A program made the position numbers and the translations under genes. This document shows positions 939 to 10,648 of a stretch of 64,000 nucleotides of DNA, one piece after another. The stretch comes from Escherichia phage T4: sequence record NC_000866.4, one strand, 5' to 3'. The notes beneath the pieces are model-generated. The model was not told the origin of the DNA. It did no database searches and was given only the letters and a program-made list of their open reading frames with translations. Position 1 is the stretch's first letter. Each line of letters begins with the position of its first letter.

Positions 939-1355
939 TTATGCATAAATCGCCTTACCGTAGTATTTGTACCAAGTAGGACGTTGTGCAATTTTTTCAT
1001 CTAAACGAGCTTGTGATATAGCAATAGAAGCTTCATGGGGAATATAATCACCACGGAATTCCTGAGGAATATCACTAATATCCTGGACTGTAGTATCCTT
1101 GATATTAAAACCACGTTTTAAACATTCAGCTATAAGCTCAATTTGACGTTTACGTAAGAACTCGAGCTTATCGTAAAAGAATGTAACATGACCTGCGCCA
1201 AGGATAAAAGTAGGACTGATTTTAAAATCACGAACACGTTTACCGTTAGCAACATGCTTACGAACTGCACCAAAAACACGCGGCAATTCACGATATTCAG
1301 CCATTAAGTGTTGGTCAGCCAATTCAGATACTAAAGTAAGGTTGATACGAGTCAT
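939..1355 (-). CDS. denV: endonuclease V, pyrimidine-dimer DNA glycosylase/AP lyase
   Basis: 138-aa ORF ([28 protein letters not shown]...) matches my recollection of T4 endonuclease V. Confidence 0.95.
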
Positions 1356-1415: not shown

Positions 1416-1718
1416 TTATTTATCTTTAATTGCTTTAGCTGCTTCGATAGCCGCTTGCTGAAGGTCATCCATAGACATGCCGAACTTAGAAGCAAAGTTA
1501 TCAATTTTCTTTTCGACGGCATTCAAAGGCTTGGCCTGTTTACCTTCATTAGCGCCAGGAAGAGCGAGAATACGCTCTCTGTCAATATAAAGGCTTACAA
1601 GTTTCTTACGGTCTTTATCGGGCAAATCATGAAATGAATGGGCCTTTTTATTTACAGCGGCTTCTAATTTACCTGCGCCCACTCGCGCTTCGGCAATAAA
1701 TTCTTGATATGTTTTCAT
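1416..1718 (-). CDS. ipII: internal protein II (packaged head protein)
   Basis: 100-aa ORF starting MKTYQEFIAEA (capsid targeting sequence shared with ipIII); position between denV and ipIII as in T4. Confidence 0.9.
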   Translation of the reverse strand: MKTYQEFIAEARVGAGKLEAAVNKKAHSFHDLPDKDRKKLVSLYIDRERILALPGANEGKQAKPLNAVEKKIDNFASKFGMSMDDLQQAAIEAAKAIKDK

Positions 1719-1769
1719 ATGTTTCCTTTAAATGTAAATATTTTTATTATTCTATCCTAGAATTGTGAT

Positions 1770-1799
1770 AATATATTCACAATTCTAGGAGTTGTAAAC
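1770..1799 (-). promoter_or_regulatory. early promoter upstream of ipII (-35 GTTTAC, -10 TATATT)
   Basis: minus-strand GTTTAC at 1799..1794; -10 overlaps the centre of a 14-bp perfect inverted repeat (1755..1768 / 1777..1790). Confidence 0.45.
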
Positions 1800-1833
1800 T
1801 GCTTTTATTTAAGCGTCCCAAGTATAAGCTTTA

Positions 1834-2415
1834 TTAAGAATTACCACGGGCTGCATTAGCAACGGCGTAAGCGTACTGAATATTAGCGTCTTTAAACTTA
1901 CCTTTAGAGGTATCTATTTCTGCCTTAAAGCCGCCTTTAGTCATAACATCGGCAAATTCTTTACGGAAAGCCATTGCATCAAGACCTTTCCATGATGATT
2001 TATGCTTGGCAAATTCAAGACCTGCGAAGTTGACAGCTTTAGCCAATTTATTATCAATGACCCATTTACCGGCTTTAGGCACAAACTTCGGGCCTTTCTG
2101 TTTAGAGAACAGTTTTAAATTCCAGCGGCGAAGGTCTGCATCAGCTTTAACAAATTCTGAGTCTAAGTTACTAGCAACAACATCTTCAATATGAGCAAAT
2201 TTAAGTCCGTCAACTTCAATATTTAAATCGGTACGCCAGCGAAGTCCTTCCCAAGCGAAGGCTTTAAAGTCGGAAGCCTTTGTAGCTAAGTACCGTTCAA
2301 TAGGAGCTGTTTTAGGGTCAAAGCCGTTTCCTGATCGGTAGGTCCACTCATCTTTGTTAATGCCTTTGGCCTTTACTACAGAAGCTTCGGCAATAAATTC
2401 TTGATATGTTTTCAT
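1834..2415 (-). CDS. ipIII: internal protein III (packaged head protein)
   Basis: 193-aa ORF starting MKTYQEFIAEA; 5' end and RBS lie in a 47-bp perfect repeat shared with ipII. Confidence 0.9.
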   Translation of the reverse strand: MKTYQEFIAEASVVKAKGINKDEWTYRSGNGFDPKTAPIERYLATKASDFKAFAWEGLRWRTDLNIEVDGLKFAHIEDVVASNLDSEFVKADADLRRWNLKLFSKQKGPKFVPKAGKWVIDNKLAKAVNFAGLEFAKHKSSWKGLDAMAFRKEFADVMTKGGFKAEIDTSKGKFKDANIQYAYAVANAARGNS

Positions 2416-2464
2416 ATGTTTCCTTTAAATATTTTAATTAGTAATTGTCTATTCAAGTAATTGT

Positions 2465-2498
2465 GAATATACTATCACAATTCCAAGAGAAAGTAAAC
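2465..2498 (-). promoter_or_regulatory. early promoter upstream of ipIII (-35 GTTTAC)
   Basis: minus-strand GTTTAC at 2498..2493; AT-rich -10 (ATAGTA/TATATT) 17-19 nt downstream; 8-bp inverted repeat AATTGTGA/TCACAATT around the -10. Confidence 0.45.
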
Positions 2499-2502
2499 AG
2501 CT

Positions 2503-3490
<988 letters not shown>

Positions 3491-9514: not shown

Positions 9515-9542
9515 TTTATTCTCCTCAGTAGTTGATAGGGTA

Positions 9543-9572
9543 ATAGTATCACAGCTAAAACCCTATGTAAAC
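9543..9572 (-). promoter_or_regulatory. early promoter (-35 GTTTAC, 18-nt spacer, -10 TACTAT)
   Basis: minus-strand GTTTAC at 9572..9567, TACTAT at 9548..9543, conserved CTATCAACTAC leader; upstream AACTTTGTGAAA shared with the ipI promoter. Confidence 0.55.
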
Positions 9573-9590
9573 AACTTTGTGAAATATTTA

Positions 9591-9878
9591 TTACAAAAGA
9601 TTTTTAGCAATAATCTTGAGATGTGCCGCAGAAATGTGTTTAGCTTTAAACAACGCAGTTTCTTCAGCAGGAGAGATAACGATTGTAGCACCATCCTTTT
9701 TAGCAGACCACCCATCACCTAGGTAAACAGTACCTTTGATTTCTTCGCCATCAACCAGACTAATCATTGGTTTACCTTCTCGTCCTTTATTTGCTTTAAT
9801 AACTTCAGAAGTAAGAGTAGCTTCGGTAATGGTAGAAACCGGGGTAGTTGTAGAAGTAAATTCTTTAAATGTTTTCAT
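9591..9878 (-). CDS. ipI: internal protein I (packaged anti-restriction protein)
   Basis: 95-aa ORF (MKTFKEFTSTTTPVSTITEATL...) matching T4 IPI as I recall it. Confidence 0.9.
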   Translation of the reverse strand: MKTFKEFTSTTTPVSTITEATLTSEVIKANKGREGKPMISLVDGEEIKGTVYLGDGWSAKKDGATIVISPAEETALFKAKHISAAHLKIIAKNLL

Positions 9879-9909
9879 TTTTATTTTCCTAATTAATTTT
9901 GATGAGGTA

Positions 9910-9939
9910 ATAGTATCACTACCTCATCAGTATGTAAAC
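9910..9939 (-). promoter_or_regulatory. early promoter for ipI (-35 GTTTAC, -10 TACTAT)
   Basis: minus-strand GTTTAC at 9939..9934, TACTAT at 9915..9910; 9-bp inverted repeat GATGAGGTA/TACCTCATC flanks the -10. Confidence 0.55.
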
Positions 9940-9951
9940 AACTTTGTGAAA

Positions 9952-10648
<697 letters not shown>

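Follow-up and report, generated by a model that had tools for sequence, protein, structure and literature searches.

The perfect 47-nucleotide repeat over the translation starts and capsid targeting codons of phage T4 ipII and ipIII: probably a product of recombination

Two neighbouring genes of bacteriophage T4, ipII and ipIII, begin with the same 47 nucleotides and then continue into proteins without similarity to each other. The question raised by this locus is whether such identity is held by selection on the DNA sequence itself, was brought about by recombination, or is simply what a duplication or chance has left behind. The window analysed here is the whole stretch of 64,000 nt, which matched phage T4 with 100% identity. 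The 47-mer, GCTTCGGCAATAAATTCTTGATATGTTTTCATATGTTTCCTTTAAAT, is present in exactly two copies, at 1687-1733 and 2384-2430, with 0 mismatches between them, so the perfect direct repeat reported in the initial annotation is real. The copies lie 697 bp apart as direct repeats. No further match with up to 3 mismatches was found in the 64 kb, and the number of 47-mer matches expected by chance was 0 (100 shuffles). The genes and elements concerned are the following.

1416..1718, minus strand: ipII, internal protein II precursor, 100 aa, mature from after Glu10 (ORF, 100% identical to T4 records; phrog_7857, E = 6e-54; sig_peptide and mat_peptide in X04567)
1834..2415, minus strand: ipIII, internal protein III precursor, 193 aa, mature from after Glu10 (ORF, 100% identical to T4 records; phrog_5341, E = 3e-117; features in X04567)
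1687..1733, minus strand: perfect 47-nt repeat, copy 1, with the ipII initiation region, codons 1-10 of the capsid targeting sequence (CTS) and 2 nt of codon 11 (exact match, translation checked)
2384..2430, minus strand: perfect 47-nt repeat, copy 2, with the ipIII initiation region, CTS codons 1-10 and 2 nt of codon 11 (exact match, translation checked)
1724..1728, minus strand: Shine-Dalgarno AAGGA of ipII (sequence; 'pot. rRNA binding site' in X04567)
2421-2425, minus strand: Shine-Dalgarno AAGGA of ipIII (sequence; RBSs annotated in X04567)
939..1355, minus strand: denV (endonuclease V), downstream neighbour of ipII (ORF; annotated in X04567 and in relatives)
2503..2997, minus strand: gene e (T4 lysozyme), upstream neighbour, the last codons of which open repeat copy A (ORF; PDB T4 lysozyme, E = 1.7e-106)

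Both the ipII and ipIII ORFs match PHROG families of internal virion proteins. Their reading as an RBS, start codon and about eleven codons in common, followed by diverging cargo, proved right and agrees with the annotation of X04567, with the literature and with the protein comparison given below. On the minus strand both copies read ATTTAAAGGAAACAT, then ATG AAA ACA TAT CAA GAA TTT ATT GCC GAA, then GC, i.e. 15 nt of 5' UTR, ten codons (MKTYQEFIAE) and two bases of codon 11. The Shine-Dalgarno AAGGA is placed inside the 15-nt 5' UTR, and in both copies the ATG follows it after 6 nt. The first mismatch between ipII and ipIII past the 47-mer is the third base of Ala11 (GCG vs GCT), which is synonymous, and the two peptides are the same to residue 11. 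Beyond it, the best BLASTP alignment of mature IpII with mature IpIII had E = 9.5, thus no similarity.

Cargo carried by this leader stays in the head and is then injected with the DNA, and an IPIII construct devoid of it (delta-CTS) exists in the literature. The CTS has been defined as the first 10 residues, MKTYQEFIAE, of IPIII, portable to foreign cargo (Mullaney & Black 1996; Hong & Black 1993, both as relayed in PMC9026906); IPIII truncations and fusions stand behind the claim that the leader is sufficient for packaging and for delivery on infection. It brings the protein to the scaffolding core of the prohead, and the gp21 prohead protease cleaves after Glu10 (PMC9026906). Packaging of cargo fused to the CTS is routine; a CTS-NP fusion, for example, was packaged at about 70 copies per head (PMC8442874). 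The idea of a protease-cleaved targeting peptide agrees with this work, as well as with X04567, in which signal peptides from -10 to -1, mat_peptide from residue 11, RBSs and stem-loops A, B and C are annotated. Both ORFs match the leader pattern M-K-T-[Y/F]-x-E-F-[I/L]-x-E with MKTYQEFIAE, and both carry I-A-E followed by A at the gp21 site, defined as [L/I]-x-E plus a small residue. In relatives the leaders were detected by the regular expression MKT[YFH].[EDQ][FLY], by which divergent leaders would be missed; at positions 8 and 10, counted because this expression leaves them free, 47 of 50 unique leader-bearing proteins had I or L and 47 of 50 had E, respectively. The residue after Glu10 was A, S, T, N or Q, and 14 cargo families were represented among the sampled relatives.

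The 47-mer is the RBS together with the known capsid-targeting leader of T4 ipII and ipIII, already documented. The repeat is confirmed but ordinary, its features having been annotated since 1986. Compared with the T4 CTS of the literature, the leader within the 47-mer is that element itself, with no difference at the peptide level, and the only addition is DNA identity over 47 nt including the RBS. This identity is visible in any T4 sequence and is rarely remarked on. As for the function, the CTS serves as a handle for loading foreign proteins into T4 heads (vaccines, delivery vectors), for reasons already understood, and the products of the ip genes are injected to counter restriction, in an arms race with GmrSD enzymes: Ip2 and Ip3 inhibit GmrSD variants, each a distinct type IV restriction enzyme (PMC12373910).

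The initial annotation considered selection at the nucleotide level, with the expectation that related phages would then not diverge synonymously in this segment as they do in the rest of the genes. They do diverge. Synonymous divergence among ipII orthologues was 0.21 in leader codons 2-11 vs 0.04 in the gene body, and among ipIII orthologues 0.22 vs 0.14, respectively. The same leader peptide is encoded in other phages with synonymous variants, the codons for Thr3, Ile8, Ala9 and Ala11 varying freely, and RBS spacers vary widely among functional orthologues. Both genes occur together in 11 further genomes, with leaders that are mismatched to each other at 4-15 of the 47 positions. A search of viral contigs with the degenerate back-translation of MKTYQEFIAEA gave 6 loci, which show synonymous variation and are too few for statistics; the comparative counts were drawn from an annotated phage collection instead.

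Purifying selection on the initiation region, on codon choice or on an RNA or DNA signal in the 47-mer could in principle hold the copies identical, and some codons are indeed invariant in all relatives (AAA2, GAA6, TTT7, and CAA5 whenever residue 5 is Gln), but these are merely the preferred AT-rich codons of a genome with 35% GC. As would suit an efficient start, the initiation region is rich in A and has less structure than shuffled sequences (z = +0.9 for ipII and +1.4 for ipIII), while within the 47-mer no stable RNA structure and no known RNA element was found. We consider this explanation very improbable; by the expectation stated above it is already largely refuted, and what selection appears to keep is the peptide and a start region free of structure, rather than one particular nucleotide sequence.

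A different picture comes from the surroundings of the 47-mer. They form with it a longer repeat of about 137/146 nt, which is perfect in the 47-mer core and imperfect elsewhere. Its order is: gene e tail, GTTTAC box (putative early promoter) overlapping a stem-loop, spacer, RBS, CTS. The parts are listed below.

1734..1823, minus strand: imperfect upstream part, copy B (ipIII-ipII spacer), with e fossil, GTTTAC box, stem-loop B and AT-rich spacer (alignments)
2431..2529, minus strand: imperfect upstream part, copy A (e-ipIII spacer and last e codons) (alignments; inverted repeat A and terminator in X04567)
1794-1799, minus strand: GTTTAC box, copy B (sequence)
2493-2498, minus strand: GTTTAC box, copy A (sequence)
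1755-1790, minus strand: stem-loop B, 14 bp (-25 kcal/mol, z = -5.7)
2459-2482, minus strand: stem-loop A, 8-bp stem (inverted repeat A in X04567)
1805..1824, minus strand: fossil of the gene e 3' end (TACTTGGGACGCTTAAATAA), downstream of ipIII (match to the JEP6-type e stop region)

The fossil differs from the JEP6-type stop region (ACT TGG GAC GCT TAT AAA TAA) only by a deletion of 2 nt. At this site the spacer is unrelated in those relatives that share the gene order, and the T4 spacer arrangement is T4-specific. Copy B resembles the JEP6 type (77%) and copy A the F26 type (93%); the equivalent of copy A in phage SA21RB is annotated as a terminator plus T4 early promoter. Regulatory signals were less clear. 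A sigma-70-like TTTACA-N17-TATATT lies at 1798-1770 upstream of ipII, the corresponding ipIII-upstream site being below threshold, and with 5 promoter-like sites vs 4.0 +/- 1.9 in shuffles there is no enrichment, hence the promoter calls are weak. A search upstream of ipII and ipIII for the perfect late promoter TATAAATA gave one-mismatch sites only. Little could be learned from generic scans for promoters and terminators, which do not cover the T4 consensus sequences of early and late promoters; the stem-loops have neither a U-tract nor GC-rich stems.

The border of identity is sharp: 47/47 positions in the core vs 73/106 (69%, with indels) in the aligned upstream flank of the same duplicated unit (1734-1823 vs 2431-2529), and no similarity downstream. 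The repeat is clearly a duplication, since it includes the e 3'-end fossil and a second stem-loop with putative promoter, in an arrangement with the T4 spacer that is T4-specific, and a plain recent tandem duplication of the 5' module might explain the identity without any later conversion. The rest of the duplicated unit is, however, down to the 69% given above with several indels, and a duplication of such age should have marked the approximately 15 unconstrained sites of the 47-mer as well. Alternatively, the units could have come from already diverged haplotypes, JEP6-like and F26-like, but in that case one would expect unlike leaders, such as other phages have. Duplication alone is in our opinion unlikely.

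Position of the genes seems to matter as well. Exact runs of at least 30 nt were shared by 7 of 29 adjacent ip pairs (24%), by none of 42 non-adjacent pairs of the same genome and by 29 of 1574 between-genome pairs (1.8%); for 7/29 vs 29/1574 the Fisher test gave p = 2e-6, with genome pairs that are phylogenetically non-independent. The same phenomenon is seen in other genomes with other gene pairs, with a 70-nt exact run between ip genes in ESCO47 and 42 nt in AnYang. Such an adjacency effect is not predicted by chance, according to which few sites are free under the constraints of peptide, RBS and codon bias, and T4 would carry the same common variants twice. The nearest known leaders (JE01 ipII, SA21RB ipIII) are indeed only 3-4 changes away from the T4 47-mer, at sites polymorphic among orthologues, 47/47 identity between different-cargo leaders of different genomes has a frequency of about 0.4%, and T4 was selected post hoc for having the repeat, which is an ascertainment bias. 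Nevertheless, with long exact runs concentrated in adjacent genes, a coincidence of this kind seems quite improbable.

We infer that the perfect identity probably comes from recent recombination in the T4 lineage and not from selection on the DNA sequence, as one part of a joint scenario with tandem-cassette origin, ipIII excision and cargo exchange; the T4 DNA identity would then be a side effect of recombination and would not represent a conserved signal. Two cassettes, each once placed directly downstream of e, would have been joined in tandem, and the leader core would later have been made or kept identical in the T4 lineage by exchange between the neighbours, through gene conversion or unequal exchange. 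The T4 47-mer is of the ipII type, with 1-2 mismatches to 10 of 15 ipII orthologues; overall it has 1-12 mismatches to ipII orthologues, 3-13 to ipIII orthologues and 0 within T4. Recombinational homogenisation, or gene conversion as put forward in the initial annotation, is moderately supported by this T4-lineage-specific identity, by the 69% flanks and by the adjacency enrichment, although no conversion event was seen directly.

Two stronger versions were given up. Pervasive concerted evolution was dropped in favour of local, adjacency-dependent events: in the 47-nt frame the mean identity of different ip genes is 73% within a genome and 70% between genomes (0.73 vs 0.70), and that of orthologues across genomes is 81%. 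Family-wide, leaders mainly travel with their own cargo, which argues that, as judged from these alignments, homogenisation occurs locally and in episodes rather than throughout the family. To read the T4 leader changes as conversion in both directions (GCC from ipIII to ipII, CAT-ATG-AAA-ACA from ipII to ipIII) was judged over-interpretation, because ipII of JE01 and Marfa already has Ala9 and several ipIII alleles have ACA.

The repeat was also proposed to be a ready substrate for deletion of ipIII, and this was borne out by the mutant phage T4_583L (MZ375356.1), whose sequence has a deletion of exactly 697 bp. A single 47-mer is left at its junction; the 60 nt to the left are ipII body and the 60 nt to the right are T4 2431-2490, identical to the window. 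Such a structure is unlike what a designed whole-gene deletion leaves, and according to the authors of T4_583L the ipIII loss did not belong to their design. Being direct repeats 697 bp apart, the copies let recombination remove ipIII exactly. Srikant et al. 2022 (PMC9391042) found ipIII missing from 3 of 5 evolved T4 populations, and their smallest deletion was 0.7 kb, presumably the same 697-bp deletion. Cas12a escape deletions of 696 bp had their junctions in the hairpin part of the extended repeat and not in the 47-mer (Wu et al. 2021, PMC8262927), for which the protospacer position may perhaps be responsible. The UvsX-dependent 'minihomology' deletions of T4 have junctions at 3-10-nt microhomologies (PMC8262927; PMC9391042). 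The event considered here is like them in being flanked by direct repeats, in keeping one copy and in having ipIII as a recurrent casualty; it differs in the perfect homology, far longer in the 47-mer than in those cases, and in the T4_583L junction, which is inside the 47-mer. For engineering, ipIII or any cargo in its slot is genetically unstable because of the 47-bp identity and the longer surrounding repeat, one recombination event being enough to remove 697 bp, and any guide or homology arm designed on the leader will address ipII and ipIII alike.

Swapping of cargo, likewise suggested at the outset, is confirmed by exact 5' modules of 45-57 nt that recur, from phage to phage, in front of ipII, Ip4, ipIII and other cargo. 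The slot proximal to e is occupied by ipIII in T4 and SA21RB, by ipII in F26, Killian and JEP6, and by Ip4 in T2. When T4 is compared with its relatives, homology stops at the leader and stem-loop region, and the gene order around denV varies. Exchanges bounded by the leader, like the excision of ipIII, place varying cargo after a common 5' module among related phages.

A further comparison is with promoter-early stem-loops, PeSLs (Arbiol et al. 2010; Comeau et al. 2014, PMC4122927), composed of a stem-loop, a sigma-70-like early promoter, a Shine-Dalgarno and a start codon, with the promoter TTTACW-N17-TAYWAT in the T4/PST pair. They are located at indel or replacement boundaries of hyperplastic regions, and their tandem copies delete the interposed DNA, with formation of a mini-circle (PMC4122927); in the case of ipIII it is the deletion product that is seen, in T4_583L. 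Like a PeSL, the T4 repeat has a Shine-Dalgarno and a start codon and lies at replacement boundaries between close phages; the -10 boxes of ipII and ipIII are each one base off the published TAYWAT. Unlike in PeSLs, the best-kept part here is the RBS with the first 10 codons, the promoter/stem-loop being at 69%, and while PeSLs end at the start codon, the T4 ip repeat runs 32 nt into the coding sequence.

A kept delivery module with exchangeable cargo and repeat-flanked neighbours also resembles integron gene cassettes and the C-terminal swapping of polymorphic toxins, as an analogy only and not as membership. Unlike integron cassettes, ip genes have no dedicated recombinase or attachment site, and their exchange appears to rely on the general homologous recombination of the phage at the shared leader and promoter/stem-loop. 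As a tentative generalisation, which we regard as possible though somewhat doubtful, neighbouring ip cassettes of T4-like phages may homogenise locally and recurrently at the RBS-plus-CTS module, making the array an integrase-free cassette system for anti-restriction cargo. Should this be true, adjacent cassettes would stay primed with perfect homologies of 40-70 nt, the phage's own recombination would precisely gain, lose and exchange anti-restriction cargo, and perfect leader identity would be the mark of the most recently active junctions.

The polymorphic IP loci of T-even phages, in which diverse small ORFs, unrelated to one another, have nothing but the conserved leader in common and take up the same slots in different phages, were described by Repoila et al. 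1994, who proposed shuffling of the IP palette as a mechanism of host range (as relayed in PMC3012670, PMC4122927 and PMC12373910). That work, as far as these accounts convey it, was centred on the ipI locus, whereas ours concerns the denV-e locus and contributes counts made on modern genomes, together with the sequence of a deletion product. The comparative counts lend modest quantitative support to the older idea of leader-bounded cassettes shuffled by homologous recombination. The third internal-protein gene is also found in the window.

9591..9878, minus strand: ipI, with a related but diverged and longer leader (MKTFKEFTSTTTPVSTITE, then A) (ORF; phrog_4363; partial 47-mer match by blastn-short)

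It is flanked by a 54-nt direct repeat of its own, at 9532-9585 and 9899-9952, with 81% identity.

The window is bacteriophage T4: across the 1,141 bases around the two copies of the 47-bp direct repeat (47-mer), many T4 records match it at 100% identity, among them T4T, RB55 and RB59. The genes of the locus, in order of transcription, are:

2503-2997, minus strand: e (lysozyme), first
1834-2415, minus strand: ipIII, second, after e
1416-1718, minus strand: ipII, third, after ipIII
939-1355, minus strand: denV, last, after ipII

Relative to the wild-type lysozyme of T4 crystal structures (2LZM and related entries), the e ORF has two substitutions, Gly12->Arg and Arg137->Ile, and is otherwise identical. 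We take this mismatch of the T4 genome with the protein sequence to be long-standing.

Exact copies of the 47-mer occupy 1687-1733 and 2384-2430, and no further match with up to 3 mismatches was found in the whole 64 kb, chance expectation also being none. On the coding strand it reads ATTTAAAGGAAACAT-ATGAAAACATATCAAGAATTTATTGCCGAA-GC and includes AAGGA as Shine-Dalgarno sequence, 6 nt of spacer, the ATG, nine further codons (MKTYQEFIAE in all) and two codon 11 bases; the copies first differ, synonymously, at the third base of Ala11. Past this leader IpII and IpIII show no relatedness (BLASTP E = 9.5), and the initial annotation of a perfect repeat over the RBS and leader codons, followed by divergent cargo, was correct in every detail.

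MKTYQEFIAE is the capsid targeting sequence (CTS) of T4 internal proteins, and in all features testable from sequence the ipII/ipIII module agrees with the T4 CTS family. GenBank entry X04567 (1986) already annotated a signal peptide (AA -10 to -1), mature peptide and RBS for ipII and ipIII. Packaging needs no more than IPIII residues 1-10, of which 4 and 7 serve targeting and 8 and 10 processing by the gp21 protease, and IPII has the same propeptide as IPIII (PMC9026906). Fusion of foreign cargo to this module, suggested earlier as a check, has repeatedly been done in the literature (beta-galactosidase, GFP, staphylococcal nuclease, SARS-CoV-2 NP). What the cargo does is established by now: Ip2 and Ip3 are inhibitors of different GmrSD type IV restriction enzymes (PMC12373910). 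PMC8442874 reports toxicity to E. coli, 'for unknown reasons', of a donor plasmid with the wild-type CTS, which had to be given an amber codon at Phe7; this is a trait of the leader or of the signals for its expression.

Homology continues upstream of the 47-mer, where 1734-1823 (copy B, ipIII-ipII spacer) and 2431-2529 (copy A, e-ipIII spacer and last e codons) are identical at 73/106 positions, with several indels. This extended repeat comprises:

ACTTGGGACGC, in both copies
1794-1799 and 2493-2498: GTTTAC box
1755-1790: stem-loop B, 14-bp stem, -25 kcal/mol, z = -5.7
2459-2482: stem-loop A, 8-bp stem
AT-rich spacer
1805-1824, minus strand: the ACTTGGGACGC block of copy B, a fossil of the e 3' end (TACTTGGGACGCTTAAATAA) downstream of ipIII; JEP6-type e terminus minus 2 nt

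Stem-loop B, upstream of ipII, has a perfect 14-bp stem by an extension (TCCTAGAATTGTGA/TCACAATTCTAGGA) that is T4-specific among the aligned phages, while stem-loop A has 8 bp only. Stem-loops A, B and C are annotated in X04567 as putative terminators overlapped by -10 boxes; since no U-tract follows A or B, such a role is not apparent in the sequence of these two.

The final e codons (T W D A Y K N L stop) make up the ACTTGGGACGC block of copy A. The block of copy B, downstream of ipIII, reads ACT TGG GAC GCT TAA ATA A and is a fossil of e, since but for 2 deleted nt it corresponds to the end of e (TGG GAC GCT TAT AAA TAA) in JEP6-type phages, in which ipII directly follows e. The T4 tandem would thus represent two joined cassettes, each formerly immediately downstream of e. 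In JE01, VIPECOOM01, W143 and TB004, which have the T4 gene order, the ipIII-ipII spacer is unrelated to that of T4 and bears a different hairpin. The 2-nt deletion also abolishes the late-promoter motif TATAAATA, perfect in JEP6; its copy at the true e terminus (2510-2517) reads TATAAAAA.

Selection at the nucleotide level had been offered as one reason for the 47-mer identity. The leader set drew on T4 and 21 other phage loci, which gave 61 leader-bearing ORFs in 14 cargo families; five genomes were added later. One leader peptide is written with many synonymous codons (ACA/ACC/ACT/ACG, CAA/CAG, ATT/ATC/ATA, GCC/GCT/GCA) and behind quite different RBS spacers. Among orthologues, codon pairs for the same amino acid were scored for difference: the differing fraction was, for ipII (10 unique alleles), 0.206 in leader codons 2-11 and 0.044 in the body, and for ipIII (15 alleles) 0.224 and 0.139. 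Leader synonymous sites vary more than the gene body, which runs counter to the prediction of nucleotide-level purifying selection and is the outcome that inter-gene leader exchange would give. Within the 47-nt frame, ipII and ipIII leaders differ at 4-15 positions in 11 other genomes with both genes, and at none in T4 alone. No RNA element was found in the initiation region, which is unstructured (z = +0.9, +1.4). The proposal of such selection therefore fails by the refutation test that the initial annotation set for it, and we consider it very improbable.

Recombinational homogenisation is the best-supported reading and, with caveats, probably explains the T4 leader identity. The core is identical at 47/47 positions, compared with 69% for the remainder of the duplicated unit; plain recent duplication is an unlikely source of this identity. 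The T4 47-mer has 1-2 mismatches to 10/15 ipII orthologues and 3-13 to those of ipIII; by this comparison it is essentially an ipII-type module, and T4 ipIII appears to have taken its 5' end from that type. In the ipI-type locus of ESCO47 (L009, minus-strand starts 23789 and 23446), two unrelated ip genes next to each other share an exact run of 70 nt over their start codons (47 upstream, 23 coding), longer than that of T4; runs of 42 and 35 nt occur in AnYang (L012, 1489/1121) and T2, respectively. Sharing of an exact run of 30 nt or more was seen in 7/29 adjacent pairs, 0/42 same-genome non-adjacent pairs and 29/1,574 between-genome pairs (Fisher p = 1.7e-6), counts in which genomes are non-independent and T4 was chosen for having the repeat. 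Averaged over all pairs, leaders stay with their cargo (mean identity 81% for orthologues, 73% for within-genome paralogues), which makes homogenisation local and episodic; the gene conversion initially proposed as ongoing is moderately supported in this restricted form. The nearest known alleles are only 3-4 changes from the T4 47-mer, at sites polymorphic among orthologues, which favours chance, although we rate chance slightly below duplication. Leaders travelling with cargo, genome non-independence, the way T4 was chosen and these 3-4 changes set the weights given to all four readings.

Swapping of cargo, also anticipated, is visible as exact 45-57-nt 5' modules on different cargo, common to ipII (AV114, JEP6, ESCO47, Killian) and Ip4 (SA21RB, ime09), to T4 ipIII and Killian ipII, and to T2 Ip4 and a different Sf25 cargo; identity stops at codons 8-11 every time. 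The slot directly downstream of e has 89-93% conserved upstream sequence and holds ipIII, ipII or Ip4, depending on the phage. Gene order in the denV region is highly variable in relatives (loci L010-L015, L013, L019): e-ipII-denV in Killian, e-ip-denV-orf-ipIII-ipII in JoYop and AV114, e-orf-ipII-denV-ipIII-ip in Klebsiella phages kv_tblp8 and Marfa, and e-ipIII-Ip4 with no denV nearby in SA21RB. In several phages the ip gene start overlaps the e end (ATG inside ...GGAAAGCGTATATATG).

The predicted product of a crossover between the 47-mers was constructed and sought in the phage collection. MZ375356.1 (Mutant Escherichia phage T4 clone T4_583L, 151,790 bp) contains this junction in one piece at 99.7% identity: a single 47-mer with the ipII body on one side and T4 2431-2490 on the other, identical base by base over +/-60 nt. 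The predicted 697-bp deletion is exact, taking out ipIII together with stem-loop B and the e fossil, and demonstrates that the repeat is a substrate for the ipIII loss foreseen in the initial annotation; it is not what a designed whole-gene deletion leaves, and in its authors' account the ipIII loss was outside the design. Independent experiments point in the same direction: in PMC9391042, 3 of 5 evolved T4 populations lost ipIII, the smallest deletion being 0.7 kb. PMC8262927 (Wu et al. 2021) reports that Cas12a cutting in ipIII gave mostly 696-bp deletions at TATATT, as well as 689-bp ones (CACAATT); the TATATT ends were placed at 1770 and 2466, within the stem-loops of the extended repeat. 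These TATATT copies are 696 bp apart and both CACAATT pairs (1761/2459, 1778/2476) 698 bp apart, and the '689' may have two digits swapped. Natural phages with ipII directly after e match the predicted junction at 95% (F26, Manna), 92% (JEP6) and 89% (Killian), an arrangement that may be either a deletion product or the ancestral state.

The finding is not new in kind, as the leader, its identity in IPII and IPIII, its portability, IP locus polymorphism and recurrent ipIII loss are already published. Our additions are incremental: T4-specific identity at the DNA level, the leader as a hotspot of synonymous variation, the association of cassette adjacency with long exact leader repeats, the e fossil in the ipIII-ipII spacer, and the exact predicted deletion in a database record.

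The order GTTTAC-N-stem-loop-SD-ATG in promoter-early stem-loop (PeSL) elements, which Krisch and colleagues implicated in modular shuffling and explicitly tied to earlier IP locus observations (PMC4122927), matches the extended repeat. The T4 repeat agrees with PeSL/IP-cassette shuffling in architecture and genomic behaviour, its promoter being putative: a generic promoter scan was no more than weakly supportive, and in SA21RB the equivalent element bears the annotation of a terminator that overlaps with a T4 early promoter. Unlike in PeSLs, conservation peaks in the RBS and leader and is lower in the putative promoter and stem-loop. The leader of ipI (9591-9878) is related to that of the 47-mer, longer and diverged (MKTFKEFTSTTTPVSTITE|A). 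A 54-nt direct repeat, 81% identical, flanks ipI at 9532-9585 and 9899-9952, 367 bp apart, each copy with ATTTCACAAAGTTGTTTACATA and a stem-loop; on this layout ipI would be a cassette between promoter/stem-loop repeats. The upstream copy exactly fits the published T4/PST PeSL promoter consensus (TTTACA-N17-TACTAT).
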